Below, piece by piece: positions 6,448 through 64,000 of a DNA stretch of 64,000 nucleotides (positions within the stretch are counted from its first letter, which is position 1; every line of letters begins with the position of its first letter). The translations under genes were made by a program, and so were the position numbers. The notes below the pieces were generated by a model that made no database searches, was not told where the DNA came from, and saw only the letters and a list, made by a program, of their open reading frames with translations. Origin of the DNA: Methanotrichaceae archaeon (lineage in GTDB: Archaea; Halobacteriota; Methanosarcinia; Methanotrichales; Methanotrichaceae); NCBI GenBank assembly GCA_963803145.1, contig CAWDLW010000016.1, positions 78,239-142,238 on the forward strand, given 5' to 3'.

Positions 6448-6449
6448 GC

Positions 6450-47145: not shown

Positions 47146-47357
47146 CAAATGCAGGAGCAAAAAGCATTGATAGCAGAAGCGGTTCTTATTCTGTCACCAC
47201 GGCTAACTTAATTTTAAATTGAATCATACCTGCAAACAAAACAATTATAATTTATAATTTAGATAGATCGCGAAAAGATTATATAAGCTATCTCCCATGT
47301 CCTCAATGGTTGATGCCTTATGATAATGATCCAAGAAGACCACAGGTGAGGATTTAA

Positions 47358-47954: not shown

Positions 47955-48179
47955 AAGGTTATATAGCTCACATTTTGGTAGGAGACGGGATCAATAATTT
48001 GTTGGATAGGGCATTCGAAGCCCTGCTGACGAAGTGGTTTTGCCTGAAGAAGGATCTCGTAGGCAAATGATGAAAGAAATCCCATTCACAGAGGATCGCT
48101 CAAATATTATGCCGTGGGGATAGACGAATAATTGAAATCCTTTCATGCTCATCCTGCAGCCAATAAATGAGGATCTAAA

Positions 48180-49253
48180 ATGAAAGTCTTAGCTCTCAAT
48201 AGCAGTCTTCGCCAGGATGGCGAGAGCAGAACTGAGCTGATGCTGAGTCACCTGGTCAAAGGTATGCGTGAAGCCGGAGCCGAGGTCGAGGTTGTTAACC
48301 TTCGTGATAAGACGATCCACTATTGCATGGGCTGCTTCTCCTGCGATACCATAACGCCTGGGCAGTGCATCATCCAGGACGACATGACCCGGGAGCTCTA
48401 TCCCAAGTGGCTTGCCAGTGACCTTTGCATCTACGCGACTCCTCTCTTCCACTGGACCTTGAACGCCCCCATGAAGGCCTTCATAGAGCGCACATGGCCC
48501 GTGATGGAGCCCTTCTTTGTCCAGGCAGCCGATGGCAGATGGGTCCATCCCATACGCCACGAGCCCCCAAAGGCAGTTGTTTTGTCTGTAGCCGGTTTTG
48601 CCGAGAGCTGGATCTTTGAGTCCCTCTCTCATTACGCCAACTTCCTCTGGGGCAGAAGAGGGAAGCTGGTTGCTGAGATTTATCGTCCTGGTGCAATGTT
48701 CATGACCAGCCTTGGCCCTGAGAAGCTGGCCGATATCCTGGGAGCCACGGAGCAGGCAGGGCGAGAGCTGGTTCTAAATAACTGCGTTCTTCCTGAGACT
48801 TTAGCCCGCATACAGCAACCCCTTGCTGATCTGGATATCATTGCCAAGGCTGCAAATATGTTCTGGAGGACCTGCATAGATGAAGGGGTAAATCCCAAAG
48901 CCTTCGGCGAAAGGGTGAGGATCCCGCGTCCCCATTCCCTGGACGATTATCTGACCTTAATGCAGCTGGCCTTTTCAGCCAAAGGCGCCGGTGATACTAA
49001 CGCTGTGGTGCAATTCGAGTTCATGGGCGAGACTGGGATGACTGGGGGTGACTGCCACATCGTCATCGATAAAGGGACGATACGGACTGGCATGGGAAAA
49101 GCATCCCAACCGGACGTCGTAGTCAGGGCTCCTTTTGAGCTGTGGATGGATATAATCTCGGGAAAGGCTAATCCAGTGCAGATGTTCATGGATGGGAAGT
49201 GCAGCGCTGAGGGAGACTTATCCCTGCTAATGAAGATGAGCCAATGGTTCTGA
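48180..49253 (+). CDS. flavodoxin-like (iron-sulfur flavoprotein/FMN reductase) fused to SCP2 domain
   Basis: NSSLR...T, CMGCFSC...C, TPLF; C-terminal MFMDGK...EGD. Confidence 0.85.
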   Translation: MKVLALNSSLRQDGESRTELMLSHLVKGMREAGAEVEVVNLRDKTIHYCMGCFSCDTITPGQCIIQDDMTRELYPKWLASDLCIYATPLFHWTLNAPMKAFIERTWPVMEPFFVQAADGRWVHPIRHEPPKAVVLSVAGFAESWIFESLSHYANFLWGRRGKLVAEIYRPGAMFMTSLGPEKLADILGATEQAGRELVLNNCVLPETLARIQQPLADLDIIAKAANMFWRTCIDEGVNPKAFGERVRIPRPHSLDDYLTLMQLAFSAKGAGDTNAVVQFEFMGETGMTGGDCHIVIDKGTIRTGMGKASQPDVVVRAPFELWMDIISGKANPVQMFMDGKCSAEGDLSLLMKMSQWF

Positions 49254-49353
49254 TTATCACCTCTAATTCCTATTTCTTCCTTTGTTTTGTCCAAAACGTG
49301 ATACCCCGTAGCCTGCCGAGGATAGGACAAAGAGAATTGGTATCAAATCTTAG

Positions 49354-49410
49354 GCCCAACATGGTAATCAGTGGCGAATATAGCAAATCGTCGGGATCAT
49401 TTTGTTAGGG
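49354..49410 (-). other. attC-like site
   Basis: Minus strand CCCTAAC (contains the stop)...GTTGGGC, 57 bp; L boxes degenerate. Confidence 0.6.
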
Positions 49411-50205
49411 CTTAACTGCAGACGCCCTGTTCCAATAGAAATACGCCGAAGCATATGGATTCATCCTCAAGTTATCAAGTTCAGCAATTGCTGCTTGAAT
49501 AAGCGATTCCGAGACGCCAAATGATAGCAAATGTGCCTCAGCTCCTTTAATGATCTCTATAGAGTTCACTATCCATGGATCAAATGTAGGCATGTCATAA
49601 TGATGCACTTCAGGTCCAATCGATAAACTGATTGAGCGGAATCCGGCTTGTTTTAGAAGGCTGAATAGTTTCTTGCCGATCTCGGCATCTCCCCCAATAT
49701 GCGATTGCAGATCTGCAAACTTTCCCAGCATCAGAGAATATGAGGGGCAATCAGGGTACAGAGCGGTGATAAGAATGTTGTTTTCTTGAATAAAGAGCCT
49801 GCCCCTTGTCTTCAGGACCCGGAACATCTCCCTCAAAGCGGTTGCTGGATCTGTCACATGTTCTAAGACGTATCGGCAATAGACAATATCAAATGAGCAC
49901 TCCTTAATATTAAGCGATAATGCATCGCCTTTAAGGAACGTCAAGTATGGTGTTTTTGAAAAGCTCGCTCTGGCTTTCTCTATCTGTTCTGGAGCAATTT
50001 CTATGCCGGTTATGATGGCGCCGGGAAAGCGTGTGGCGACAGAGTTCGTGAGGATGCCCAGGCCAGACCCAACTTCCAGTACCGAGTCCCCAGGTTTGAT
50101 TTCCAGGAAGTCTAGGAACGATGCGTTGGTCAGGTCATTGAGCAATGACAGACGTGCTTGCTCTTCAGGGCATGTTCCATGTATGTATGTTGGTTTTTGC
50201 GTCAT
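49405..50205 (-). CDS. class I SAM-dependent methyltransferase (cassette)
   Basis: VLEVGSGLG, FDIVYCRYVLEH. Confidence 0.9.
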   Translation of the reverse strand: MTQKPTYIHGTCPEEQARLSLLNDLTNASFLDFLEIKPGDSVLEVGSGLGILTNSVATRFPGAIITGIEIAPEQIEKARASFSKTPYLTFLKGDALSLNIKECSFDIVYCRYVLEHVTDPATALREMFRVLKTRGRLFIQENNILITALYPDCPSYSLMLGKFADLQSHIGGDAEIGKKLFSLLKQAGFRSISLSIGPEVHHYDMPTFDPWIVNSIEIIKGAEAHLLSFGVSESLIQAAIAELDNLRMNPYASAYFYWNRASAVKP

Positions 50206-50245
50206 CTTTTCACTTTTGCCCTGATGCTAAGCTCAACTATCTGGC

Positions 50246-50312
50246 GGCCAACGAGATTGTGAACCTGAACACGTTATCTGTCGCCGTGATCAAGTATAGC
50301 GACTCGCTATGC
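50246..50312 (-). other. attC-like site
   Basis: GCATAGC (contains the stop)...ACTTGATCACG/CGTGTTCAGGT stem...GTTGGCC, 67 bp. Confidence 0.7.
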
Positions 50313-51059
50313 CCTGATTGCTTGCAATACAAGTATGACAACTCCAGCAGCGAATGAGATAATGAATGCAATAATGATTCCCCATTGGATTCGTTCCAAG
50401 TGCTTGAAGCGAGCTTTTCCCTGGCCGATCGAAAACACTGCATGGGGGAAGAACAAATCGCGAAAGCGGTTCAGCGCGATTCCTATTGCGAGCAGTAAAG
50501 CGATACCGCCGTAAACCACTAACTGGGCTAGGGCCGAGTTACTTGAATCCACCTCCTTTGAGCTATCGACTGGTAACCATTTGAATGCAACAACAATGAG
50601 CAGGATGGACCAGAGAATGAAGTATGCGAGGACTGCGATGGATACAAAATCGACCCGGTACAATACGGTATACCATGGCTGCATGCCTGTGATAAGATCG
50701 AGTACGTCCGCGCGTAAGAGTGATACAATGTCGTCAGAGGCTTCAAAATCAAGCGAAATCCCCTTCCAACGCGAACCAGACAAATCAATCGTTGCTCGTT
50801 TCTTCAAATCATCAGAGTGAGAGGAGATGCGGAGGCGCTGTATTTCCTTTCCCTTGGCATTTTCAAACGCATCCAGCTTTTCGATTGTCGTGAACATTCG
50901 AGCCACACCATCCGCGCAATCTGCTCGAATCTCCAAGTTACCGATTCGGTCCGACAGTAGGCTGGCCAACTTCTTTAATTCATCCTCACCAGCGACAAAT
51001 GCCTGAGGTAGTTCGACAGAGTAGTGGGCGTCCACTAGTATCACCCCTCTGGACTTCAT
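50307..51059 (-). CDS. hypothetical membrane protein (cassette)
   Basis: Soluble N-domain plus three TM; true start must follow the attC (51059 or GTG at 51035). Confidence 0.75.
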   Translation of the reverse strand: MKSRGVILVDAHYSVELPQAFVAGEDELKKLASLLSDRIGNLEIRADCADGVARMFTTIEKLDAFENAKGKEIQRLRISSHSDDLKKRATIDLSGSRWKGISLDFEASDDIVSLLRADVLDLITGMQPWYTVLYRVDFVSIAVLAYFILWSILLIVVAFKWLPVDSSKEVDSSNSALAQLVVYGGIALLLAIGIALNRFRDLFFPHAVFSIGQGKARFKHLERIQWGIIIAFIISFAAGVVILVLQAIRA

Positions 51060-51060
51060 G

Positions 51061-51118
51061 GCATAACGATTGGAATAACCGGCGACCAAAAGTCGTCCGG
51101 TAGCCTCCTTAGTTAAGC
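51061..51118 (-). other. attC-like site
   Basis: GCTTAAC...ACCGGACGAC-TTTTG-GTCGCCGGT...GTTATGC, 58 bp. Confidence 0.8.
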
Positions 51119-52043
51119 TATTTGTAAGTCCTTTGAATGTTTCTATCGCCATGTTCGCTCACAATAAAGATATTGTGGCGTGTAAACGCAGAGGATCTCA
51201 CTGCATTTAGGGGCAGCTCCATCATCAATTTTCGCTTCTGGCGAACAGCTTTATGTTGAATTTCTGAGTTCTTGAGATTGCTGATCATGTTCATGCCATA
51301 CTTGGTTCTAAACTGTTTATCTAAATGGCGTAGTATGACGCAAATGAAGCTGTCACAACCAAATCAGCAATTGACTTTAGAGTTCACCATCCTTTAACAA
51401 TTCTTGATTCGGTATCCGATGTAGGATTTCGATTTGAGACCATCATCATCTTGGCAACCGGGGCATGTTTTCTTATTTTTTTGTGTATGCAATGCAGAGG
51501 CGATAACTTACCCCCGCAGGAAGTGATTAGCTTCATGGAAAATGCGTTGTCTTTGCAGTTCTATAGTATCATTAAAGTGCATGGTCGGCAACTTTGATCG
51601 TAGTAGCTCTTACTTTCGTTTCTCCATAAACACGAGTCGGACATTGGGCGACAAATCTTCCTCACGGTACTCTCGATATCCAAGCCTATGGTAGAGCCGG
51701 ATATTATTAATGCTTTTGACGCCCGTGAACAACTCAAATCGTTCTGCGTGGGGAAAGGCTGCTTCTAATCCCATGAGCAAGGTCCCGATCCTTTTTCCCT
51801 GGTAGTCCGGGTGAACGATAAGCCTGCCGACTTGGCAAGTGCCCGAATCGAGGGAGGCTCTCACTGAACCGATGATCTTATCCGCATACACCGTCTTCAG
51901 AAAGACTTTAGTTTCAAACTCAGACGTAATCTCAGGAAGGGTCTCGGTGAGAGGCGGGATAGTCCAGTCATCATTTATAGTTAATCATTGAGCTTATTGC
52001 CCTATAGATACATTTAATAATTAATGCGTGAAAATACATAGGC

Positions 52044-52541
52044 ATGGGTAGAAAACCTATAATAATTAGGCATATATCAAAGATAGACCTTGATAAATTA
52101 TATAAAAAAGAGACTGATCTAAGGATTAAGGAACGGTTATTGGCAATAATACATTTATATGAAGGGAAAAACGTATATGAGGTAGCTGATATTTTAAAAA
52201 GGGGCGAGAGGACAATAAAATATTGGTTAAGCAGATGGAATAATCATGGCTATAATGGATTGACACCAAAGAATAGAAATGGCAAAAAGCCAAAGATGTC
52301 TCTTGATGAATGGGATAGAGTTATTAAAGAAATTGAAGACAAAGGAATGACGATAAAAGACGTATTAAAATATGTAAGGGATACAAGAGGTATAGATTTT
52401 TCATATAAATATGGCTGGCGAATTTTAAGAGTAGTGAAAAAAGTTAAGTATGGGAAACCATACATCAGAAATGAAAAGAGGCCTGCAGATGCAGAAAGTT
52501 TTTTAAAAAAGGATAAAATCAGTGCTGACCACTGTTACTGA
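52044..52541 (+). CDS. IS630 transposase orfA (HTH)
   Basis: ERLLAI..LY.G, W..RWN..G..GL, KPY. Confidence 0.9.
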   Translation: MGRKPIIIRHISKIDLDKLYKKETDLRIKERLLAIIHLYEGKNVYEVADILKRGERTIKYWLSRWNNHGYNGLTPKNRNGKKPKMSLDEWDRVIKEIEDKGMTIKDVLKYVRDTRGIDFSYKYGWRILRVVKKVKYGKPYIRNEKRPADAESFLKKDKISADHCY

Positions 52542-53049
52542 TCCTGTTATAGGATTTCTTGATGAAAGCTCTTTACAACAGCGCCCTAATACACGTAGAG
52601 TCTTAAACACTCATTTAATAAATTATAAACCTGGAAAGGTTAGATCAAGAACTATTTTTGGATTTATAGCATTAAATGGCAATGATGAGGTTATGGTTTC
52701 CAACTCCTCTAAGAAGGAAGCGTTGATGGCATTTGCTCAAAATATAAGAAATAATAATATTATGAGGCCAATTTGTATACTTTTAGATAATGCTAGAATT
52801 CATTTGGCCAAGAAATTTAGAAAACTAGCTGAGGAAATCGATATTCACTTAATTTATAATATCCCCTATTCACCAGATTTGAATCCTATAGAATTCGGTT
52901 GGAAGGATTTCAAAAGAGAGATCGCCAAATACACTGATTTCGATGAAGCTATTATAGCTAGCCAAGATTGCGCTTTAGAAATATTTTATTCCAAAAAGGA
53001 TGGATATTCAAAGTCCTGGGTGGAGCGATTTCTTAGTGCAAAAAGCTAG
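52522..53049 (+). CDS. IS630 transposase orfB (DDE)
   Basis: FLDES, LDNARIH, PYSPDLNPIE. Confidence 0.92.
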   Translation: MLTTVTDPVIGFLDESSLQQRPNTRRVLNTHLINYKPGKVRSRTIFGFIALNGNDEVMVSNSSKKEALMAFAQNIRNNNIMRPICILLDNARIHLAKKFRKLAEEIDIHLIYNIPYSPDLNPIEFGWKDFKREIAKYTDFDEAIIASQDCALEIFYSKKDGYSKSWVERFLSAKS

Positions 53050-53197
53050 GAGATTAACTATAGTTCTGCTTCGCTTTGGTATGCCACCTTCTGCAATGCC
53101 AAAATTTCACCGGCATCATCAGGAGTTGCTTGAACTATGGAGATGTCCATACATTCCTCTAAGCGCCGCATTCCGCTGGACTATCGAAGTGCGTCCA

Positions 53198-53263
53198 GTG
53201 TAACAAAGAGCTAACCAGGAGTGGCCCGAAATAGCCACAATCCAGTTCAGAGCCCTGTAATGC
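53198..53263 (-). other. attC-like site, followed by a second partial hairpin (53163-53200)
   Basis: GCATTAC...AACTGGATTGTGGC/GCCACTCCTGGTT...GTTACAC, 66 bp, starting just after the stop codon. Confidence 0.75.
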
Positions 53264-53264
53264 A

Positions 53265-53783
53265 TCATCTATTCTTCAAACACTCCTCGATTACCTGCTG
53301 GTGTTTGGCCACGTAATTGCAGCTAGGCTCTTCGCCGCACTTTCGACATTTCAAGTCGTAGATGGAATTGATGGTTTGGCATCGTGGGCAGGCATAGTTT
53401 TCCCTAATTTCCCTGAGCCATTGTTTATAACCAACAGACTTGATTCGTTCAAGATTGGCCCAAAGCTCGATCCGATGAGGCATTGCAGATTGAAACTGTT
53501 TCAGGTCATCGCAGGGATAATCTTCACATTCGCTGCAAAAGTCGATGCCACGTTCAGCCGCGCAAGCGAACATCTTGCATTTCTCGCAATAAGGCGGCCT
53601 CTTGTCCGACCGGCATCCATAGCATTTGCTCTCTTCCTCCGAAATATGCAATTGCGCTGCAAGCCTTTTGAGCCTTTCAGGATCTTCAGCGGTGGAAATG
53701 AACAACGAGCACGCCTCACAGTAAAGGCCACATACAGCTGCGAGTTTCTTGTCTAATTCTCCAGAGTGATCTTCTTTTTGCAT
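53265..53783 (-). CDS. DUF3795 family Cys-rich protein (cassette)
   Basis: CGLYCEAC, CYGCRS, FCSEC.DYPC, terminal Zn ribbon. Confidence 0.88.
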   Translation of the reverse strand: MQKEDHSGELDKKLAAVCGLYCEACSLFISTAEDPERLKRLAAQLHISEEESKCYGCRSDKRPPYCEKCKMFACAAERGIDFCSECEDYPCDDLKQFQSAMPHRIELWANLERIKSVGYKQWLREIRENYACPRCQTINSIYDLKCRKCGEEPSCNYVAKHQQVIEECLKNR

Positions 53784-53841
53784 GACAACCTCACCATCAT
53801 TTACTGATGCATGCTTTTGTTCTTCTGTTACATAAAATCGC

Positions 53842-53892
53842 ACATAACCTAGGCCTGACTACTCGCGGCAGCGTTCGATGCGCTGGTTTGGC
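53842..53892 (-). other. attC-like site (degenerate)
   Basis: GCCAAAC CAGCG CATCGAAC...GTTATGT, 51 bp. Confidence 0.6.
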
Positions 53893-53900
53893 GTCTCCTG

Positions 53901-54281
53901 TTATTTCTGCCTATAGGTTGCTCTGAACCAATGCACTTGAGGCTCTCGTTGTCCAAGTAATACTCGAAATGGAGTTCGACGAGACAGACATCCCTTCAAC
54001 TCCTTGCTCTGGACACACTGTCTAACCTCGCAATGGGACTTCCTACCGCCTTGCTGGCACGGAGCTGGACAGCGAAGCTCCTTAATTTGATGCAAGACTG
54101 ATAAGAATATGGGATAGTCTTCGAATTCCTTATGTTGTGCAGATTTGAGTTCCGCGTAATGATCGAACTGTAATTGTTCTAGGATCTGATCAAGTCTGTC
54201 TACCAGCGCGAAAAGCTCCTCGCATGAAGGTATGCAGTCTGCGCAACAGAGACCGCAATAGGCTGTTAGCTTTTCATCCAT
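53901..54281 (-). pseudogene. DUF3795 family protein, C-terminus apparently disrupted
   Basis: YCGLCCADC...CEVRQC; the expected C.EC motif is lost after KGC. Confidence 0.7.
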
Positions 54282-54299
54282 ATTTCCTTGTTCCTGCTC

Positions 54300-54367
54300 A
54301 GGCAACACGAGCTACAAGTCACCACCATCAGGACTGATGCGCCGTCCCATTTAAACGGTGGTTGTGC
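54300..54367 (-). other. attC-like site (degenerate)
   Basis: GACGCACAAC is complementary to the cassette start ATTGGGCGTC (8/10); ends GTTGCCT. Confidence 0.6.
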
Positions 54368-54375
54368 GTCGCTAT

Positions 54376-54912
54376 TTACTCGCCTGCCAGTTCTTTGATT
54401 TTGCAAACTGTTCTCCAATTGCGATCAGTCATCGTCACACCTAGCAGCCTTTCGGAATTTGCCGCGAGCTTGGACCGACCTACTCCATCGGGTGCATGTA
54501 GATAAAACACCTCGTCGGTCAGATAAAATCGTTCATTTTCCGTCCTAAGATTATTGAGTTTTTCTAGGTCAGGGTTCTTGGGTGCTGAAGCCAGAAAGCC
54601 AAGATGCAAATTGCTGGGGTCAGTTACTGCATCCGGAAATGGGTTTTTCGCAATTGCCCTGTCTATTGCTTCGAGTCCAAGAATCAGAACCTGGGATTCA
54701 AAGCCATGGCGGTTCTTGATTGCAGCAGCCAACTGTTTGGAGAGCTGCAAAGAATTCCCTTCTTCGCTCTGAAATACAGCATTGCCGCTTTGAATATATG
54801 TTCTGGCTCTTTTCGCGCCAATGTCTTTCAGAATGGCAACGAGCCCATTCATTGGCAAAGAGTTCTTTCCTCCCACATTGATGCCTCTGAAAAGGGCGAT
54901 GTAAGTATTCAT
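54376..54912 (-). CDS. DUF1697 family protein (cassette)
   Basis: YIALFRGINVGG, TYIQSGN, T.RNWRTV. Confidence 0.92.
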   Translation of the reverse strand: MNTYIALFRGINVGGKNSLPMNGLVAILKDIGAKRARTYIQSGNAVFQSEEGNSLQLSKQLAAAIKNRHGFESQVLILGLEAIDRAIAKNPFPDAVTDPSNLHLGFLASAPKNPDLEKLNNLRTENERFYLTDEVFYLHAPDGVGRSKLAANSERLLGVTMTDRNWRTVCKIKELAGE

Positions 54913-54942
54913 TCGATCACCATTTGAAGCATACCACTAGAC

Positions 54943-55003
54943 GCCCAATGGGAAACTTACTCTGAGTCTGCTGTTTGGGCGATCAGGCATACCATTATTG
55001 GGC
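54943..55003 (-). other. attC-like site with AAT/ATT variant cores
   Basis: ACGCCCAAT...ATTGGGCGT perfectly complementary ends, 61 bp. Confidence 0.55.
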
Positions 55004-55013
55004 GTATCCATTC

Positions 55014-55075
55014 ATCGAACTTCTGCAGTTTCGGAGCGACCTGTTTCTGGCATTCACTAGAAAATATTGTTATGC
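55014..55075 (-). other. attC-like site (degenerate)
   Basis: GCATAAC (complements the cassette start GTTATG at 56442)...GTTCGAT, 62 bp. Confidence 0.55.
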
Positions 55076-55094
55076 ATCACTTTGCCTTCTGAAC

Positions 55095-56411
55095 CTATGT
55101 CTCGTCTTGTGTCTTCTCTGCAACAGGCGGTGATGGGAATACGACCCGACCAGTAGATGAGAGCAGTGTTTGCCGACATGCTCGTGCATACTCAACATCA
55201 GGATTGCTAACGAGATATTGCACAGGCCAAAAGAGATCCGGCGTAAAAACCAATGCTGTGGAGAAAGTGGTCGCAGCCTTATGGCACTTCTCGGTGAATG
55301 GATCAGACCGCTCGCTTAGGGGCTGAAGGCGGAAACCATTTCCGAAGAGCACAGGCTTTGCAGGTGCAGTGACGCTTTCTCGCTGCCAATCCTCCTGTAT
55401 GTTCATCGATAGCTGCCTGAGCTTATCAATGTTGATTGCCTTATTATCCTTCCCTTCGGCTTCGCCGATGAGTCGACCTTCCTCTGATTCGAATACAACA
55501 TCAAATTCTGAGTCCGATTCTTTGAAGGGCGCAGCTGTAAAGCCAAGCAAGCGAAGCGCTTCAATAATCACGTTCTCTAGTGGTTTTCCCTTCTCGAATA
55601 GAAGGCGTCGGCAGGTGCCTGCGGACCGCAACTCTTCGACGATCTTCTCTTTCTGCTTCTGTGCCTCTTCGACTTTCCGCTCAGCTTTAAGTAGCCGAAC
55701 TCGCAATGATGACTCCATGCCGAGCTCAAACCTAGGCTCAATAGCCCAAACAGGCTCAGGCGTGACTTCAGACGAACTTCGCAGTGCCTTGTCAAGTGCG
55801 ACAACCGTTGACACCATACGACCCGCGAATTTCTTTGCAGCAGGAGTCCAATACTGTTCCCCCTCTCTTTCCTTTGAGAAGTTATCGGGCTTAAAATCGA
55901 CATCCGGTAGCAACAATAGCGTTCCTGCTGATGACTTGCTCCGATAGAGTGCACCTACGGTCTTCTCTCCTGTGCGGGTCACGATACATGCCGGAACTTT
56001 AGGGTCAGTGAGGATGACCTTGTACTGCGAGACACTTTCGAACTCGGTCCAATAAGGCGAGAGAATATCTGCGCAGCGTGCCGACAGTTTCATGGAGCTT
56101 CCAATGGATATTACAGGCGACAGATTAACAGGAATAGCTTGATAGTTGCTTTCCCCTCGTGACTCGTTGGGACTCGGAAGAAAGACGATTACTGTCTTAC
56201 CAGTCTCCATAGCTTGCTGGATTTCCCTCCTCCAATGATCACACGAGGCTTTTCGCTCACCATGAATATCAATGAAGTCGAAGTTACTAATTTGAGGCTT
56301 GAAGAGGACAATGTCCCAATCGAGAAGGGATGGCTTTGACCAAAAGCTCTCGCACTCTGTATCTGGCGAGGCCAGTTCAAGACCTATTGTCAATATCCGT
56401 CTCGCACTCAT
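55095..56411 (-). CDS. hypothetical protein with coiled coil and C-terminal PD-(D/E)XK-like domain (cassette)
   Basis: LE..I...L..LGF, EFDVVF...IGEAEGKD; GGAGGT RBS after the attC. Confidence 0.75.
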   Translation of the reverse strand: MSARRILTIGLELASPDTECESFWSKPSLLDWDIVLFKPQISNFDFIDIHGERKASCDHWRREIQQAMETGKTVIVFLPSPNESRGESNYQAIPVNLSPVISIGSSMKLSARCADILSPYWTEFESVSQYKVILTDPKVPACIVTRTGEKTVGALYRSKSSAGTLLLLPDVDFKPDNFSKEREGEQYWTPAAKKFAGRMVSTVVALDKALRSSSEVTPEPVWAIEPRFELGMESSLRVRLLKAERKVEEAQKQKEKIVEELRSAGTCRRLLFEKGKPLENVIIEALRLLGFTAAPFKESDSEFDVVFESEEGRLIGEAEGKDNKAINIDKLRQLSMNIQEDWQRESVTAPAKPVLFGNGFRLQPLSERSDPFTEKCHKAATTFSTALVFTPDLFWPVQYLVSNPDVEYARACRQTLLSSTGRVVFPSPPVAEKTQDET

Positions 56412-56435
56412 ACTAGAATGGTGACCTCCTGTAAT

Positions 56436-56493
56436 TCATAACGATGTGCATCACTAATGGCTAAAAGCCATCCAGTGGCTGCCTAGATTAGGC
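56436..56493 (-). other. attC-like site homologous to 51061-51118
   Basis: GCCTAAT...ACTGGATGGC-TTTTA-GCCATTAGT...GTTATGA, 58 bp. Confidence 0.8.
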
Positions 56494-56882
56494 TGTCTGT
56501 AAGACCTTTGAACGTTTCTATCGTCACGTATTCCGATAATAAAGACATTGCGGCCTATGGTACGGAGTATCACACAGCATTCAGGTAGATACAACTTTCT
56601 TTTTCAACGGCTAACAGATGGATATCCTTTTCAGCGTAAGAAGGAACCGTTCATCTTATTCCTATCAACCTTATCGTCAGAGTTTCCAAAGCATTCCCCC
56701 AGCGAGGGGTTAGGGGTAGCCCGCGCGGCGACTGAGCGCGCTATAAGGCCGCTAGTTCTAGCTCCAAAAGTGATTATATTTTTGAATTATATAATAGCCA
56801 GTCATTATATCATGAAGAACTGATTTGGGTCGCGATCAGCCTCCGAAACATCCCCAATTCAATGAACGATATGCTTAATTAT

Positions 56883-56898
56883 TTGAACGATCGTTCAA
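56883..56898. promoter_or_regulatory. perfect palindrome, putative toxin-antitoxin operator
   Basis: TTGAACGATCGTTCAA, with an extra half-site TGAACGAT at 56863. Confidence 0.6.
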
Positions 56899-56914
56899 TT
56901 TTTTGGTGTATTAG

Positions 56915-57448
56915 TTGAGAAATCCCGTGGGCTTCAGAGTGCTTGAGTTGTTTTTGATTCATCCTTCCTTAGAGATCCACCTCAATGAGCTTGCCAGAAA
57001 CTTAGATATCGCTCGTGGAAGCGCCAAGAGCTACTGCGATGCCTTTGTAAATGAAGGCCTGATCCTGGAGAGTTCAAAAGGCAACCTCCGGCTTTTTAGA
57101 TTGAATAGGGACGATTTCGCTGTTAGAGAAATTATGAAGGCCTACTATCTTTTAAAGCTCAAGCATCTAGGCATTGAGCACCTGGCTGAAGGCTGCACAT
57201 CTCTGGCAATTTATGGCAGCTTTGCTCGAGGGGACATTGATGAGCGAAGTGATCTCGACCTCCTGGTGATTGGCGAGGATGGAAGCGTTGACCGAGATAA
57301 AGTCATGAAACTCCAAGATGCTCTGGGAAGAGAGGTCCAGCTGACTCTCCTGCCATATTACAGATGGGAGACCATGAAAAAGGAAGGAGATAGGTTTGCA
57401 GAGAGCGTCTTGAGGAAACACGTCCTTGTGAGCGGTGTTGAGCTATGA
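56915..57448 (+). CDS. wHTH-MNT nucleotidyltransferase (antitoxin)
   Basis: N-terminal HTH; YGSFARG...SDLDLLVIG. Confidence 0.88.
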   Translation: MRNPVGFRVLELFLIHPSLEIHLNELARNLDIARGSAKSYCDAFVNEGLILESSKGNLRLFRLNRDDFAVREIMKAYYLLKLKHLGIEHLAEGCTSLAIYGSFARGDIDERSDLDLLVIGEDGSVDRDKVMKLQDALGREVQLTLLPYYRWETMKKEGDRFAESVLRKHVLVSGVEL

Positions 57449-57867
57449 GGTTCGAAGAATGTCTCGATAAAGGCCTTATCAAGAAAGATCCCTTGGCTAG
57501 CGAGAGGGTTGAAAGCTCTCTAATGATTGCAGAGAGATTTCTCAGATCTTCAAATCGCAACCTGGAGATTGATGAATATGAGATGGCCGAGATGGCAGCC
57601 TACAATAGCGCATTTCATGCTGCCAGGGCTTTGCTCTTTGCGAAAGGGTATACAGAACGCAGCCATTTTTGCCTCGGTATCGCTCTTAGAGGTCTGTACA
57701 GAGGAAAGATCGCCGATCTTCTCAAAACCTTCGATAAAATCAGGCTATCAAGACATAATGTTCAATACGGTGGAGCGCTCGTCACCGAAGACGAGGCAGT
57801 GTTTGTAATAGATTTTGCGCGGGATTTCCTGGTTGTAGCCAAGACGGAGCTTTTGGCATCCAAATGA
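57445..57867 (+). CDS. HEPN domain protein
   Basis: AY..AFHAARALL...G...SH, R..VQY; ATGA coupling to the MNT gene. Confidence 0.88.
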   Translation: MRFEECLDKGLIKKDPLASERVESSLMIAERFLRSSNRNLEIDEYEMAEMAAYNSAFHAARALLFAKGYTERSHFCLGIALRGLYRGKIADLLKTFDKIRLSRHNVQYGGALVTEDEAVFVIDFARDFLVVAKTELLASK

Positions 57868-57938
57868 TCTGAGAGACTTCTGAAGACTCTTCTTTTCTCA
57901 CTCATGCTCTCTATGTCGATATGCCCCAATTTTTGGAT

Positions 57939-58004
57939 TGCCGCAGGGTTTCCAGAAAAGACTCCGGATGTAAAAGCATCGACCTGGTAAATGGGTATCC
58001 TCAT
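57939..58004 (-). pseudogene. PhzF family 5' fragment
   Basis: MRIPIYQVDAFTSGVFSGNPAA, after which similarity ends. Confidence 0.8.
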
Positions 58005-58058
58005 CTTTGTTCTCCAATCTTTTCGTTTCTAATGAATTACCATTGTTTTTTCTAGCTC

Positions 58059-58895
58059 TCAAGCCAAACTCTGGCATTCAGGACAATAATAGCAAGCTCC
58101 GCCCAAGTAGGCCATCTTCTCGACCTTCATCCCACACTCAGGACAAGGCTGTCCCACCGCAATCTTGTCCATTATGCGCTTGTACTTGCCCGGATTCCCG
58201 TATAGATCCGTTTCATCATTTCTGCCGCCCAGCCGTATCGCTTCGGCCACAGTTTCAACAATGGCTTGATGCATGTTTTTAATCTGAGTCCTGCTCAAGC
58301 CTGATATGGGCCGTTTTGGATGGAGCTTCGTCTTGAACATAATATCCTGAGCGATCGAGTTCCCAAGTCCAGGTATCAGCTGATCCTGGGTGAGCAGTCC
58401 TTTAACAGATCTGCTTCCTTTTTTTGTACATTCCTCGATGAGAGCTGAAAGGTATGCCGGGCTGAACTCCGGATCAACCGGAGTGGTCCGCATGCCTTTG
58501 ATGTATTGCCGTTCTAGCTCCTCTCCTTCCTCATAAAGTTCCATTGCGCCCCACATTTGAGTGGTTGCTGATAGGGAGCTACCATCATCGAAATGCAGTG
58601 AAAGATGATACTTTTTCGGCAGCTGTGATTCCGAATCATGCAGGATAATCTTGCCGCCGCACTCTCCAAATACAAGCACGTAGCCTGGCTGGATAGGGAT
58701 GAATAGCCATCTTCCTTTGCAGTAGGCTAATCCTATGGTCTTTCCTTTGACAATAGCAGCAAACTCATCTGGCTTCCTGTTATACCAGACGAACTTATGC
58801 GGAGAGTTGCCTAAGGTTCCATTGGCGATACGCTTGCCTGAAAGGCTTTCAGCCATCTGGCGAGCCAAGGTAACATACTCCGGGAGTTCAAACAT
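58059..58895 (-). CDS. Fpg/Nei-family DNA glycosylase-like protein
   Basis: M(F)ELPE, H2TH LL.QD..PGLGN, Zn finger CPECG...CPECQ. Confidence 0.88.
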   Translation of the reverse strand: MFELPEYVTLARQMAESLSGKRIANGTLGNSPHKFVWYNRKPDEFAAIVKGKTIGLAYCKGRWLFIPIQPGYVLVFGECGGKIILHDSESQLPKKYHLSLHFDDGSSLSATTQMWGAMELYEEGEELERQYIKGMRTTPVDPEFSPAYLSALIEECTKKGSRSVKGLLTQDQLIPGLGNSIAQDIMFKTKLHPKRPISGLSRTQIKNMHQAIVETVAEAIRLGGRNDETDLYGNPGKYKRIMDKIAVGQPCPECGMKVEKMAYLGGACYYCPECQSLA

Positions 58896-58912
58896 GCGAG
58901 TTTCTCCTCTGC

Positions 58913-59551
58913 TTAATCTGATATCTTTCGACCAACCATGAGAAATATGGAGAATCGCCTCATCTCGCCACTATTGCTTGGCTTCACCATTTCTGCAGCA
59001 CTTATATTCCGAACGTCAACAAATCCCGCTTTCGTGAAGACCTCTTGCAGAGCAGCCCGATCAAACCCGAAATGAAATACGCCGGTATTGTCTTCATGAA
59101 ATTGACCATCATCCAAGTCTAAGTCAGCAATGCACAGATAACCACCAGGGGCAGTGACTTTATAGAATTGAGCGAAGAGAGGTTCTATCTCCTTTATATG
59201 GTGAAGGGTCATATTGCTTAAAACAAGATCATAATTCCCCGTCAGAAGATCGCCCTTGTCAAGATCGATGAGTACGGTTCTAACTCTGTTCAGCCTCTGC
59301 TTGGCGATTTTAGCATTAAATATGTTGAGCATCCCCTGCGAACTGTCTACCCCTATGACAGAACGGACTAGCGGCTGTAGTCTGAGAGCCAGCAGTCCTG
59401 TGCCGCAGCCGAAGTCCATAATATCCATTTCTGGTGTCAAAGCAATCTCTTTCAATATCGCATGGGCAACATCATCCGCCAGTTTGGCCCTTGCAGGATT
59501 TTCGTCCCAGGAAGCTGCCTCCTTATCAAAGTCCCGTTTTTCAGTGTTCAT
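58913..59551 (-). CDS. class I SAM-dependent methyltransferase
   Basis: FD..A..WD, MDFGCGTG, MTLHH, H.GF. Confidence 0.9.
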   Translation of the reverse strand: MNTEKRDFDKEAASWDENPARAKLADDVAHAILKEIALTPEMDIMDFGCGTGLLALRLQPLVRSVIGVDSSQGMLNIFNAKIAKQRLNRVRTVLIDLDKGDLLTGNYDLVLSNMTLHHIKEIEPLFAQFYKVTAPGGYLCIADLDLDDGQFHEDNTGVFHFGFDRAALQEVFTKAGFVDVRNISAAEMVKPSNSGEMRRFSIFLMVGRKISD

Positions 59552-59646
59552 GATATTTTGCTCCTTGGTTAAATGATGAGGAAATAGAGCCAATGCAGTT
59601 CCGTAGCGATGTTGAATATGGCTAAGTCACCTTCAATTCCATATTC

Positions 59647-59705
59647 TTACCACTTCATTGATCATGTGCTGCCGTAAGCCGTCAACCTGCATCCGCTTGT
59701 TTGTA
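59647..59705 (-). other. attC-like site (R' degenerate)
   Basis: TACAAAC AAGCG GATGCAG...TGATC just after the SDR stop. Confidence 0.6.
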
Positions 59706-59711
59706 GCCTTT

Positions 59712-60473
59712 TTATCGCATGAATAATCCGCCATCTACAAAGAAATTCTGCCCAGTGATGTACTTCCCCGTTTCCACCAGAAAGAGCATCATCGAGGCAA
59801 TATCCTCGGGATTTCCCAATCTTGCCATTGGAATATCTTGTTCGTAACGTTCTCGATTGTGCGTATCATCAAACTGATATCGCTTTCGCAGTTCCTCTGT
59901 ATCTATCCGCCCCGGCGTTACGGTATTTACCCGAATATTGGGGGCTAATTCCATTGCCATACACTTTGTTAACGCCAATATACCTGCTCTAGCACTGCAA
60001 TAGTTCGCACCGTTCTTCCGTCCCTTCACGGCCGTCACCGCACCAATATTGATAATGTTACCAGCTTTACCCCTATATCGTCGGGCAAATTCTTGTGAGC
60101 ACATGAAAGTCCCGTTCAGTATGGTTGATACTACCGTATCCCATTCATCATCTGACATTTCCATAAAGGGCTTATCCCGATTGACACCAGCATTATTGAT
60201 AAGAACATCCATCCTTCCAAATTTCTGATAGGCTTGCTCAAATAGGGATTGAACTTCAGCTCGATAGCGAACATCCGCCTGAATGGCTACTGCCTGGGCT
60301 GCGTTCCAATCATGCAACAAGGAGTCAGCAAACCTGGCAGCTTGTTCGGCTCCACGACGATGATTCAGCACTATGGCATAACCTGCACGAGCAAAAGCTT
60401 GGGCAGTTGCTCGACCAATGTCGCTTAGTGCTCCGGTGATTAGTATGACTTTTACATCCGCAGTGTTGAACAT
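59712..60473 (-). CDS. short-chain dehydrogenase/reductase (FabG-like)
   Basis: ITGA...IG, NNAG, YCSAR (Lys replaced by Arg), ITGQ...VDGG. Confidence 0.9.
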   Translation of the reverse strand: MFNTADVKVILITGALSDIGRATAQAFARAGYAIVLNHRRGAEQAARFADSLLHDWNAAQAVAIQADVRYRAEVQSLFEQAYQKFGRMDVLINNAGVNRDKPFMEMSDDEWDTVVSTILNGTFMCSQEFARRYRGKAGNIINIGAVTAVKGRKNGANYCSARAGILALTKCMAMELAPNIRVNTVTPGRIDTEELRKRYQFDDTHNRERYEQDIPMARLGNPEDIASMMLFLVETGKYITGQNFFVDGGLFMR

Positions 60474-60615
60474 TATCAGTCGCCTCTCATTGAATTGGCA
60501 TTTGAAGGCCACCAATTGCGAGTTGAGCAGAACCCCCTCGGGCGCATTGCTGTATTGAACTACTTCCTGCCAATAATCTAGCTCCCTCACTCTATTAACT
60601 GCAACTGCCTCGCGA

Positions 60616-60657
60616 TTGCTTGAACTATGAAGATGTCCATAAATTCCTCTAAGCGCC
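60616..60657 (-). repeat. second copy of the GNAT cassette head (first copy 53126-53167)
   Basis: 40/42 identical; includes the RBS and MDI(S/F)IVQA. Confidence 0.9.
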
Positions 60658-60730
60658 AACGTTACTCCTGAGCATTCCTAGTGAGGCCGTCCGCGATATT
60701 GCTGGGATATGCTCCGGCAGATTGTTCGGT
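60654..60730 (-). other. attC site (best preserved)
   Basis: ACCGAAC AATCT GCCGGAGCAT...ATGCTCAGG AGTAAC GTTGGCG, 77 bp; GCACCGAAC perfectly complements the cassette start GTTCGGTGC at 61617. Confidence 0.85.
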
Positions 60731-61594
60731 GCCTCTGTGATTTCTTCGGATGCCCCACTGAAAGGTCTTTGGAAGTTTCCCCGGTCTGACCCAGAGGACA
60801 GCACCATCCTTTAGGCTAAATTCATACTCCCACGGTTTGGCGTCTTTGGGCCTTGGCGTGATGTCCGCTGGCAGGTACGGCTTGACGGCTAGATGTTCGA
60901 CCCAATGAGGTTCGGTGATCTCAAAACTCGTCCATCCCAAACCAGCATCACAGAGCTGCCAGAGGGTTCCATCCTGCATCTCGAAAACGAGGGGCTTTCT
61001 TCCATCCGGCAAATCGAACTCCCATACCCGAACAAGACGTTGCTTTTGCTTCAGTTTCTTATTTCGTTCCTTTACTACATCCTTGCCCGGGAGGGGTTCC
61101 ATGCCCTCGCCTGAAAGGATTAGCGCAAAGGAGGCCTGAAGAATGTCATCTGTAATGCCAAGTTCATTTTGTCTATTGTGAGACCACGCAGTTGTTTCCT
61201 CATCCAACCGGCTGAAGATTGCAGCGTAGCCGTCAAGTTCTTCAATGAGTTGCTGAATGTTCTCAGCCCGAAACATCAGCTGCGCTCGGTCGAACCAAAA
61301 ATGATGGGCAAGGAAGTTCCTTTTCTCTCGCACTTCTTCCAATCGGGTCGAATACTCGGCTGGAATCCTGCCAGCCAGTTCGGTGATAACCTGGCCAAGG
61401 GTCAGGGAGAACGCATTGGCGAGGTGTTCCTCGACGCGTGGACGTGTGATCATATCCCTCTGTGGGAGATCGGACATCGCCAGGATAATGCACAGCTCGC
61501 GGTGCAGGACTTCGCTATAATAGTAGGCGAGACCAAAGCGTGCGTACATTTCCCGCACGAGATCTTCGGTTGGCTCATTGGTGACAACCATCAC
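60662..61594 (-). CDS. hypothetical protein with HEPN-like Rx4H motif (cassette)
   Basis: TLGQ.I..L...KRNFLAHH; the ORF reads into the attC. Confidence 0.75.
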   Translation of the reverse strand: MMVVTNEPTEDLVREMYARFGLAYYYSEVLHRELCIILAMSDLPQRDMITRPRVEEHLANAFSLTLGQVITELAGRIPAEYSTRLEEVREKRNFLAHHFWFDRAQLMFRAENIQQLIEELDGYAAIFSRLDEETTAWSHNRQNELGITDDILQASFALILSGEGMEPLPGKDVVKERNKKLKQKQRLVRVWEFDLPDGRKPLVFEMQDGTLWQLCDAGLGWTSFEITEPHWVEHLAVKPYLPADITPRPKDAKPWEYEFSLKDGAVLWVRPGKLPKTFQWGIRRNHRGTEQSAGAYPSNIADGLTRNAQE

Positions 61595-61610
61595 TGTCCT
61601 CTCTTATTGC

Positions 61611-61662
61611 ACCGAACGCGGCACGGCAGCAGCCTGCGCCCGGCTGCATGCGCTGGTTATAA
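61611..61662 (-). other. attC-like site
   Basis: TTATAAC CAGCG CATGCAGCC...GGCTGCTGC...GTTCGGT, 52 bp; the stop of an upstream ORF fragment lies in R''. Confidence 0.75.
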
Positions 61663-61837
61663 GGCTATTCTATGTTGTTGCTTCCTAATCTGCTTGACCT
61701 TTTCCCATAATAAATTTACCTGCAAAATATTCTTCTGTATTTGTCTGTCTTCTTCCACAATCCAGAAATCAAGCCCGACCTTCTTGATGTAGCAGGGATT
61801 GTATAATTTTGTATTGTGTGAATAATGATCGGCCATA

Positions 61838-64000
61838 TCAGCCATTGGTATGTCCGACAGTTGCTTCACACTTGCCCTCACCATAAGGCGTTCTGGCGCT
61901 CCGCGGGAAAAACGCATCGCGCAGTCTCCAGACGGCTTCCATCGTAAGGGCTTCGCCGTCAAAGATGATCTTGAGACTCTCTTTGTCCTCTCGGTTCATC
62001 AGGTAGTTTGTCACGTTCATCCAGCGGATTATTCCTCCATCGGTTCGTTCGTCAGTCTGGCGGACGACGAGATATACATCCACAGGAATACTGATCCAAT
62101 ATTCCAGGTGACGGTCGTTCTTCACGTCGAAGACTTCTCGGCCGTCTCTCTGGCGCGTCCGCGAGTAGTAATTGCCACTCTTAAGTTGCACGTAGATCTT
62201 CTTCCCGCTCGGCTGGCCGTCGTTGTCCTTGAATTCCACCTCGCCATCGATACCGTAATCGAACTTGCTTACCTGGCGGAAAACCTGGTTCGCCTCTCCA
62301 CAAATAGCCATCATGTGGCCGATTAGGATTTGTTCCAGCGCATGTTTGTCGAGTTCCCACGTGGCCGTCTTCTCCATGGACAAGATCTTTTGTGCTACCG
62401 GATCGCTCTTCAGGCGCAGCTCGATGAAGTCAATAAGATCGACCTCGGTGCGGCACTTCTGACAGACAATCGTTTTCTGACCATCGGCGAGCAGTTCCTG
62501 AATTAGCTCCAAGTCCTTGAAGGGTCGACCGCATTCGTTGCAGATATACCGCCGGTCACGGCTTACGTTGCAGGCGTATCGGGCAAGGTGCTGATGGACA
62601 TATTCGATGAATACCGCCTTCAACTCATCCGAAACATCCTTGTCGAAATATAGGCTGATCGTGGCTTCACCTTCGCCTTGCTTATGGGTTAGCTTCAGCC
62701 CAAGCGAGTCCTTTTTTGGTGACACAAACTCCGCCGCATTTCGCCAAAGCTCTTTATGCTTGAATTCGTGGCTGTACCATAAGCGCACCACTAGCGTCGT
62801 CCAGATCGTCTGCCACTCGCCGTTGAAGGTATAGGAGACGAAAATGTTTGGGTCGTGTGGAATATCCTTTTCGCGACGGTATTGTGAAGGAAAGACCAAT
62901 TCTCGGCCCTGTGGCGTCTCTTCAGCAATGCATAGCGAGTGATCGAGAAACGTCTGCACCATTGCCCGCAGCAGCAGTTCTTCGTCCGGTCGAGGCAGCC
63001 GATCGACGCCCGTGAAGTCAAAGTCCGGCTTGTAGATGTCTGCCTCCAGCACGCAGCCTATCTCGTCCAGATGGGTGCGGGCGGCGCGGATGATCGCCCC
63101 AGCGTAGCCGTTCATTAATTCGGGATGTAGCAGCACCAGGTCACCGAACTTCAGCGGAAGAGCTAAGCCCTGATTGGACAGCAGGGTCACCGCCGTTCGA
63201 ACTTCGGACTCGCCGACCCGCTCTCCCGGTAGGGCCTGCTCCAGACGTTGCCTTAACTCTACGAATCGCAGCAGTCGGATGTCGGCCGAATCACGCATCT
63301 TCAGCAGGGCGCTCTTTAGCTCGGCCAGAAGCCGCGTCGTGGCGGTCCACGGCAGTGTCTCCCAGGGGATGCTATTGGCAATAAGCTGCTTCAGCTTCGA
63401 GGGTTGTCCCTCGTTCCCCCTGTCCGAGCAGTTCTCTCCTGTCTTGGCGCTAGTGTCCAGCCAGTTGGCGAAGTGGTTTTCTTGGGCAAATCGTTCGATC
63501 TTGGCGTTGCTGATCTTCTTGCCCCCGACATCGACCTGGGAGAAGATCAGGAGCCGGGCAGTCTCGCGTTTCGCTTCTTGGTTGCTGGCGGTATCGAGTG
63601 CCTTAAGCCAGTCGCCGGCCTCGGCAAAGGGGTCGTCCTTCTGCGGGTTAATCAGCAGCAGGGCTAGCGCGGTCTCGTCGAGGAACAGCCGGTGGATCAG
63701 ACGGTAGTCTTCCTGCCCAGCCAGGTCCCAGAGCAGGGCCTCTCGGTCAAGGGTGGCATCAGGAGGCAGCAGAAGCGCCAGCGGCCAGACGTTCATGCCG
63801 TGGGTACGGTCTTTCACCACGTACTCATCTTCAACCAACCGATATGCCAGCGATGTCTTGCCGACTGCGCCTTCGCCGAGCAACACGACCTTGGCGTTTA
63901 CATAACGGCGCGTAGGTTCGGCCGCCGGAGCTGCGCGACCGCCAGTGAAGCGATAGATGTATATTGCGAATTGTGATTTTGCAGAGCCAATCAGTAATCT
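61838..64000 (-). CDS. Roc-COR GTPase with zinc ribbon and C-terminal DUF4365-like nuclease domain (5'-partial)
   Basis: GEGAVGKTS, WDLAGQ, TSAKTG; CNEC...CQKC; DYGIDGEVE...VQLKSG; frame open to base 64000. Confidence 0.85.
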   Translation of the reverse strand, partial: RLLIGSAKSQFAIYIYRFTGGRAAPAAEPTRRYVNAKVVLLGEGAVGKTSLAYRLVEDEYVVKDRTHGMNVWPLALLLPPDATLDREALLWDLAGQEDYRLIHRLFLDETALALLLINPQKDDPFAEAGDWLKALDTASNQEAKRETARLLIFSQVDVGGKKISNAKIERFAQENHFANWLDTSAKTGENCSDRGNEGQPSKLKQLIANSIPWETLPWTATTRLLAELKSALLKMRDSADIRLLRFVELRQRLEQALPGERVGESEVRTAVTLLSNQGLALPLKFGDLVLLHPELMNGYAGAIIRAARTHLDEIGCVLEADIYKPDFDFTGVDRLPRPDEELLLRAMVQTFLDHSLCIAEETPQGRELVFPSQYRREKDIPHDPNIFVSYTFNGEWQTIWTTLVVRLWYSHEFKHKELWRNAAEFVSPKKDSLGLKLTHKQGEGEATISLYFDKDVSDELKAVFIEYVHQHLARYACNVSRDRRYICNECGRPFKDLELIQELLADGQKTIVCQKCRTEVDLIDFIELRLKSDPVAQKILSMEKTATWELDKHALEQILIGHMMAICGEANQVFRQVSKFDYGIDGEVEFKDNDGQPSGKKIYVQLKSGNYYSRTRQRDGREVFDVKNDRHLEYWISIPVDVYLVVRQTDERTDGGIIRWMNVTNYLMNREDKESLKIIFDGEALTMEAVWRLRDAFFPRSARTPYGEGKCEATVGHTNG

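Follow-up and report, generated by a model that had tools for sequence, protein, structure and literature searches.

A Methanotrichaceae methanogen with a probable, partly eroded integron cassette array that lacks an integrase

We analyzed a 64,000-nucleotide (nt) stretch of DNA, here called the window, from contig CAWDLW010000016.1 of a Methanotrichaceae archaeon (assembly GCA_963803145.1, genome G000; the window is G000:C16:78239-142238, and its last base coincides with the contig end). Its final part, 49353-64000, holds a run of minus-strand genes that spans 63886 down to 49405, is punctuated by twelve hairpins resembling attC, the recombination site of integron cassettes, and continues off the contig end (Table 1). 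An integron array in bacteria is a stack of mostly promoterless cassettes with one or two genes each, and the integrase IntI inserts and excises them via the folded bottom strand of attC, with the crossover between the G and the TT of the R' box. A preliminary description, made from the sequence alone, had taken this region for a partly eroded array of bacterial-type cassettes. Our comparisons pointed the same way, as two units were found with the same boundaries elsewhere, in bacterial or metagenomic homologues of 60-74% identity, and one homologue lay directly behind a true IntI. We therefore consider it very probable that 49353-64000 is, on the minus strand, a partly eroded cassette array of the classical type without an integrase, i.e., a cluster of attC sites lacking integron integrases (CALIN), in a methanogen chromosome. 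This status is normally decided by the covariance model of IntegronFinder, and was here assigned from comparative data and hand-read sites. The genes were mostly co-oriented, as had been proposed, but the open reading frames (ORFs) of an IS630-family insertion sequence (IS; 52044-53049) and an MNT-HEPN gene pair (56915-57867) lie on the plus strand.

The host chromosome is archaeal and belongs to a methanogen. The window encodes PorA_Arch (555.9 bits, cut-off 550), PorB, an archaeal ATPase, and the formylmethanofuran-tetrahydromethanopterin formyltransferase Ftr (439.9 bits); contig C15 of the same assembly carries mcrA, and the stretch at 44-49 kb shows 84-92% identity and synteny with a 2.2-Mb contig of G002, a sister species of the same genus. 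The assembly comprises 4.13 Mb in 51 contigs and is 99.3% complete, and its contamination was rated 6.77%. This rating, a guanine-cytosine (GC) content above the genome mean in parts of the array, and nearest non-archaeal homologues that are bacterial would fit a bacterial contaminant or a chimeric join in this metagenome-assembled genome (MAG). However, such an origin is extremely unlikely: shared units stand at the same locus, contiguous with archaeal flanks, on the 2.2-Mb contig of G002; a Methanotrichaceae genome has related arrays in the interior of an 880-kb contig; the genome's own IS630 element, of which eight further copies with 100% identity were listed in G000, is found within the array; and metagenome contigs bridge flank and array. 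The closest relatives of the array genes belonged to a Methanotrichaceae MAG, a Methanothrix sp. MAG and a Methanosarcinales MAG, two of which are family-level search matches in genus g2 of the window's own family (G189:C1:664133 and G048).

Next, we looked for the array genes in other genomes. The 309-amino-acid (aa) protein was related to 28 loci of a species-genome collection, 3 archaeal (87-91%) and 25 bacterial (30-69%). In the window, the ends of its unit (61617-61609 and 60732-60724) are exact reverse complements of each other (9/9, by eye), and the bacterial homologues at four loci (L020, L033, L034, and L035; L-numbers denote homologous loci) had 5' ends whose 9-11 nt pair with their own R'' without a mismatch, also read by eye. 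By the same kind of reading, L018 and L019 had the R'' sequence of the window's unit. The homologue of L020 occupies the first cassette position, and an IntI truncated at its 5' end (model TIGR02249, 284 bits, cut-off 265) precedes it by about 200 nt; the attC downstream of this cassette forms a textbook hairpin, in which the R and L boxes pair, bases bulge out, and the spacer is asymmetric. An IntI over the cut-off was detected in five of the seven bacterial genomes holding this homologue. In the protein tree, the four archaeal copies formed one clade (100/100), which was nested in a clade with one Lentisphaerae and one Desulfobacteraceae copy (98/94), and the bacterial part mixed phyla. The midpoint root of this tree serves for drawing only, and the L021 row is unreliable: this copy is split over two frames (five stops in the single-frame extraction), its long branch is an artefact, and it was dropped from the analysis of nonsynonymous to synonymous divergence (dN/dS).

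The 250-aa membrane protein was found at three metagenome loci with 73-74% aa identity. These homologues have an 8-nt 5' end identical to 51067-51060 of the window and a canonical R'', and the attC upstream was different at each locus, so that the same cassette has been inserted into different arrays at the same cut point. In the window, the ends of this unit (51067-51060 and 50313-50306) are complementary at 7/8 positions and those of the DUF1697 unit (54949-54940 and 54370-54361) at 8/10, both by eye, so that the three complementary end pairs pointed out beforehand were confirmed. Over five units, the by-eye values were 9/9, 7/8, 8/10, 8/10, and 7/8 (with one base missing), and the distal methyltransferase unit, at site A, gave only 4/8. 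Further support came from the 438-aa protein, which had one homologue (39%) in 1 of 301 genomes of Desulfobacterota, the phylum of the Desulfobacteraceae genome G035; it is preceded by a strong attC-like hairpin and shows a 7-nt own-end match, and its downstream site folds poorly. Moreover, the GNAT cassette has intact canonical ends in G206, a genome of another Methanotrichaceae genus, and sites of the relatives were in general more canonical, as seen behind this GNAT gene. An intact GNAT cassette also stands behind the counterpart of site J in L017 and L032, where the window retains a remnant. The preliminary description had named homologous genes that are never cassette-borne as part of what would refute its reading; these homologues are borne by cassettes. 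Judged by these sequence comparisons, at least the 309-aa and the membrane-protein units are bona fide bacterial-type cassettes that entered the archaeal lineage, and the GNAT and DUF3795-family units are cassettes by comparison with the relatives.

The twelve positions listed beforehand all proved to be the low-coordinate ends of hairpin-like R''...R' sites on the minus strand, but the ends we assigned differ at D (53208 rather than 53198) and I (59587 rather than 59647). The three gene stops said to fall inside R'' do so (49407-49405, 50309-50307, and 61659-61657). With RYYYAAC as the R'' and GTTRRRY as the R' consensus, exact AAC and GTT cores were read in 7/12 sites; AAC is present in K, J, G1, F, E, D, C, and A and missing from B and H, and R' begins with ATT in I and G2. 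When the bottom strands were folded as DNA, the minimum-energy structure had paired R boxes in five of the twelve sites (J, G2, D, C, and A), and an internal loop and bulged bases were visible in C and J. Compared with shuffled sequences, five sites had z values of -2 or lower (H, G2, D, C, and B), and K, G1, and F had positive values. A consensus R'' was found near the stop of 4/10 array genes and of 444/3527 genes elsewhere (one-sided Fisher test, p = 0.029), and a consensus R' upstream of 4/10 and 928/3527, respectively (p = 0.26).

Sites C and H of the window and a copy in G206 constitute a family of paralogues, in each of which an attC follows the 3' end of a DUF3795-family gene; the H region has 81% column identity to 51215-51040, the region of C. 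Among these three copies, compensatory changes were observed in 5/19 pairs, and 89% of the cells were paired, against 19-55% when the partners were slid; the pairing was taken from a single one of these sequences, a choice that favours the structure. A search of G000 for copies of the window sites returned none besides the C/H pair. Rfam, which has no attC family, gave no match at the gathering threshold in the window and none at E <= 1 in 49-64 kb. Our own covariance model R1, built from three bacterial attCs of one type, recovered only its seeds (that of L020 twice, via an overlapping locus); at E <= 10 it missed other bona fide bacterial sites as well as all the window sites, and is thus uninformative either way. 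Repeat finding beside the full-length IntIs of G033, G035, and G031 gave no repeat family in the stretches examined.

Several observations weigh against a cassette array. Seven of the twelve sites lack R-box pairing in the minimum-energy fold, and about half have folds unlike attC, so the folding expected of the bottom strands was seen in part of the sites; independent support is absent for I, G1, F, and E. The generic AAC...GTT hairpin scan gave 10 matches in the array, where the genome as a whole would predict 7.1, and the motif enrichment is weak. No cassette-borne homologue was found for the short-chain dehydrogenase, methyltransferase/Fpg, DUF1697, and distal methyltransferase units; a search of five bacterial genomes with integrons gave two DUF1697 homologues of 34% identity (G033 and G210), both ordinary genes and neither borne by a cassette. 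In G206, the 309-aa gene no longer has a 5' R'. The breakpoints that separate G000 from G002 lie away from G|TT, and the replacement sequence amounts to 105-106 and 192 letters, indicating that these differences are not clean integrase events. Finally, IntI was judged absent from an assembly of 51 contigs in which the array runs off a contig end. The scan without enrichment, the weak motif tests, and the half of the sites that fold no better than shuffles are what would be found in an ordinary variable genomic island, with hairpins that are terminator-like or due to chance and an integron look picked by eye. We nevertheless give this explanation very little credence: the exact boundaries of two units recur in homologues from bacterial or metagenomic arrays, and an IntI adjoins one of these homologues, site C/H has compensatory changes, and canonical sites occupy orthologous positions in the relatives. 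The sequence pattern by itself is only weakly above chance, and the case for an eroded cassette array therefore rests on the comparative data.

We then addressed the integrase. TIGR02249 found no IntI on any of the 51 contigs of G000, with a best match of 48.8 bits against the cut-off of 265 and none on C16. In 201 genomes of the class, 99 of them from the family, no match was over the cut-off, and all the matches skipped the IntI-specific part; the three relatives that carry the 309-aa cassette gave 0/3. Since no IntI was detected in the assembly, the genomes of the class, or the cassette-bearing relatives, the array is called a CALIN. The alternative is a complete, active integron with intI and attI just past the contig end, where the preliminary description had expected them. 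In its favour, the window ends at a contig end within the array, the cassettes point away from that end, where attI is expected, an R'-like motif read by eye stands close to it (63906-63900), and one cassette is very young when compared with the core divergence (synonymous divergence, dS, of 0.135 versus saturation). Yet no IntI exceeded the cut-off in a genome of this completeness, nor in the class and the relatives just mentioned; the ORFs scanned around the G002 and G206 arrays, which lie inside very long contigs, yielded no IntI gene, and several R cores are mutated. A complete integron has, accordingly, a small chance of being correct. In G206, ten ORFs were scanned of those in 36 kb of a long contig, nine of them within the array; no integrase family was among them, and they included a glyoxalase, DJ-1/PfpI, TIR, GNAT, a methyltransferase, and a caspase-helicase protein.

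The only tyrosine recombinase among the ORFs scanned in an 18-kb stretch of G002 was Xer-like and not an IntI (XerA model, 181 bits, under the cut-off of 220), and its gene (L015 7241-8212) lies about 4 kb from the array. This location, and cassettes that apparently moved between genera without IntI, raise the possibility of a non-classical, integron-like system in which an archaeal Xer-type recombinase without the IntI domain moves the cassettes. We think this very unlikely, as no counterpart of the recombinase stands near the array in G000 or in G206 (the best match in G000, 39%, is on another contig), the ends of the verified cassettes are classical, and a classical IntI adjoins one homologue. 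Moreover, an 85% identical copy of its last 39 residues is found about 800 nt away (6336-6452), and this duplicated C-terminal fragment suggests the border of a separate integrated element, the recombinase's own.

Comparison of the relatives showed how the array varies. G002 has an array at the same chromosomal place, without the window segments 49263-51616 and 53183-53988, and its GNAT gene is uninterrupted by the IS. Both G000-like and G002-like forms were present in contigs of one sediment sample; these metagenome contigs came from four DNA runs (shares of 0.06-0.15; no RNA run was listed) and leave, e.g., 49.6-51.2 and 60.8-64 kb without cover. The empty IS630 site (joint 51975>53061) was present in all four runs, and forms with and without the DUF3795 unit of site D both occurred. 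G206 and the genome of L032 have related arrays with a different cassette order and chromosomal site, lying between homologues of two genes that are adjacent in the window (45302-46099 and 44208-45296). The methyltransferase-Fpg pair is adjacent also in G016, and Fpg is found also in the G206 and L032 arrays.

The divergence of the array genes was then compared with that of core genes. Between G000 and G206, dS was 0.135 for the 309-aa gene, 0.49 for Fpg, and 0.70 for GNAT, and the proportion of synonymous differences (pS) in three core genes was 0.69-0.78, i.e., saturated. The array genes are far less diverged than the core genes, which points to exchange after the genera split, and the different dS ages argue for unit-by-unit transfer. 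The cassettes thus seem to have reached the genera after their split and at different times, with import from bacteria to archaea. The dN/dS values of three array genes were 0.14-0.31, and the intact array genes analyzed are under purifying selection. The 309-aa gene was present in 4/105 genomes of the family and in neither of the two other genomes of the window's genus.

Collectively, the scenario that we favour for this probable CALIN is that bacterial-type cassettes entered the archaeal lineage by import from bacteria and were passed between archaeal genera after those had split. The array is now largely immobilised and decaying, with no IntI in the assembly, several mutated R cores, gene remnants, and the IS630 element and the MNT-HEPN pair as invaders, and it presumably is not recombining at present. 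That attC cassettes are still exchanged between Methanotrichaceae genera without a classical IntI is possible, though we rate it as unlikely. If true, attC hairpins would be the substrate of an unrecognised archaeal recombinase, or else bacterial partners that share the sediments and granules would use their integrons to shuttle cassettes in and out of archaeal DNA. Either way, the array raises the question of how cassettes move where no integron integrase is found.

Integrons and CALINs have been described in archaea, with six IntIs and 539 attCs in 75 MAGs (Ghaly et al. 2022, Sci Adv, PMC9668308). As in the arrays of that article, most of which lack an IntI, short and mostly co-directional ORFs stand here between attC sites in an archaeal genome, with links to bacterial cassettes and with addiction modules among the cassettes. 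The array also agrees with the definition of a CALIN by IntegronFinder quoted there, two or more attCs spaced by less than 4 kb with no integrase, in having several attC-like sites at such distances and no IntI. It differs from the arrays in that article in that many sites are so eroded that calls with standard models are uncertain, and in being followed across multiple species within a single family and dated from synonymous divergence. The lineages named in its main-text passages are Asgardarchaeota, Hadarchaeota, Hydrothermoarchaeota, Korarchaeia, Nanoarchaeota, Aenigmatarchaeota, Thermoproteota, and Methanobacteriota, and those passages do not name Methanotrichaceae or Methanosarcinales. 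The titles and abstract openings of the literature on integrons and Methanothrix gave no account of integrons in these archaea. As far as these sources go, the kind of element is already described and the host lineage is new.

The sedentary chromosomal integrons of Nitrospirota, Chloroflexota, Acidobacteriota, and Desulfobacterota (L018-L042) share with the array a cassette gene family, its 5' end, and its R'', as well as the attC architecture, i.e., an R box, a spacer, an L box with extrahelical bases, and a variable loop. Unlike the archaeal genomes, where none was found, five of the seven bacterial ones examined have an IntI over the cut-off, and their sites retain canonical AAC and GTT cores. 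Methanotrichaceae, i.e., Methanothrix and its relatives, are among the main acetate-using methane producers of sediments, wetlands, and digesters. The array exemplifies a concrete route for bacterial accessory genes, among them methyltransferases, acetyltransferases, a DNA glycosylase, and defence-like genes, into a major methanogen lineage, where they were then kept under selection. It offers a traceable, multi-species addition to the archaeal integrons reported in 2022, with dated cassettes and visible stages of decay.

Table 1. Features of the array and its flank, from the contig end inwards. Sites are given in the minus-strand direction, from R'' to R'; z, fold compared with shuffled sequences.
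Feature	Coordinates	Strand	Remarks
Ras-like GTPase + DUF4365 (restriction-endonuclease-like) gene	61838..63886	-	most proximal unit in view; frame open to contig end; GC 0.52-0.60
59-aa ORF	61657..61836	-	overlaps GTPase gene stop; own stop inside R'' of site K; no family above cut-off
Site K	61609..61664	-	61664-61609; R' 61617-61609, also 5' end of 309-aa cassette; R boxes unpaired, z +0.87; boundary homologous to bacterial cassettes
309-aa cassette	60653..61617	-	ORF 61591-60662 + attC J (60733-60653); ORF runs through attC; J folds with paired R boxes
GNAT cassette 5'-end remnant, 42 nt	60616..60657	-	directly behind R' of J; 88% to GNAT 5' end of G002
Short-chain dehydrogenase gene (60473-59712) + hairpin I (59708-59587)	59587..60473	-	hairpin long, imperfect, poorly attC-like; z -0.40
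Two-gene unit: S-adenosylmethionine (SAM) methyltransferase (59551-58913) + Fpg/Nei glycosylase (58895-58059)	58059..59551	-	17-nt gap, no site between
MNT (nucleotidyltransferase) + HEPN toxin-antitoxin-like pair	56915..57867	+	opposite orientation; array invader
Dispersed repeat copy, ~130-150 nt	56616..56792		104 BLAST rows in G000; many copies in relatives
DUF3795-family gene 3' remnant + site H (56494-56435)	56435..56605	-	paralogue of site C region; R'' core mutated; z -3.17
438-aa ORF (56411-55095) + weak site G1 (55078-55013)	55013..56442	-	own-end complementarity 8/10 by eye; z +0.48
Site G2	54940..54984	-	54984-54940; 45-nt hairpin, 7-bp R-like stem; R' starts ATT; z -3.16
DUF1697 gene (54912-54376) + site F (54370-54299)	54299..54949	-	ends 8/10 complementary; fold not attC-like; z +0.52
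Short DUF3795-like gene (54281-53901) + site E (53895-53840)	53840..54281	-	C-terminally truncated vs G002; z -0.36
DUF3795 gene (53783-53265) + site D (53254-53208)	53208..53783	-	absent from G002; z -3.69; paired R boxes with 3-nt bulge
GNAT acetyltransferase cassette (53150-53061 + 51975-51610)	51603..53215	-	split by IS; 7-nt R'' remnant 51609-51603
IS630-family insertion sequence	51976..53060	+	helix-turn-helix ORF 52044-52541, DDE ORF 52522-53049; GC 0.32; TA target duplication
Decayed DUF3795-family gene (~51555-51129) + site C (51119-51060)	51060..51555	-	best attC-like fold of array; z -2.97
250-aa membrane-protein cassette (51059-50307) + site B (50313-50245)	50245..51067	-	R'' core mutated at one base; z -2.04
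SAM methyltransferase (50205-49405) + site A (49411-49353)	49353..50252	-	last array unit; R boxes paired, z -1.78; absent from G002
FMN reductase/SCP2 gene	48180..49253	+	conserved chromosomal flank, convergent on array end; 92% nt identity to G002, synteny onward

Some minor features were also observed. The GTPase/DUF4365 protein is a 682-aa fusion of a Ras/Roc-like GTPase to a nuclease-like domain with a GC content of up to 0.60; its PADLOC matches, to models of Argonaute-associated nucleases, were weak, and the gene possibly serves in defence. The MNT-HEPN pair matched the PADLOC candidate families PDC-M05A and PDC-M05B and is located elsewhere in G002. Beside this insertion, at 58004-57935 on the minus strand, a short ORF begins with a likeness to positions 1-17 of the PhzF family (E 0.087, a sub-threshold value) and may represent a truncated cassette gene. 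The dispersed repeat has a GC-rich, hairpin-forming core (56683-56743) with no Rfam match, may be a MITE or a small RNA, and showed high depth and loose ends in the metagenome contigs.

The end of contig C13 was considered as the continuation of the array and rejected; no recombinase family was found there. On the flank, a stretch with a GC content of 0.35 (47149-48157), which holds a gene for an NnrU/PEMT-like membrane protein (47358-47954), is absent from the otherwise syntenic G002. In G206, the array at about 658-672 kb of contig C1 is flanked by an ArsR-like/Fe-S regulator gene and an SBF-family transporter gene. In G002 (L015 2269-3285), the DUF3795-like and GNAT genes constitute one open frame of 338 aa across a decayed site. 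Finally, a single metagenome contig from one run joins 60614 to 56495, with a side of 37 nt, and this joint would place the dehydrogenase leader directly behind the DUF3795-family remnant.

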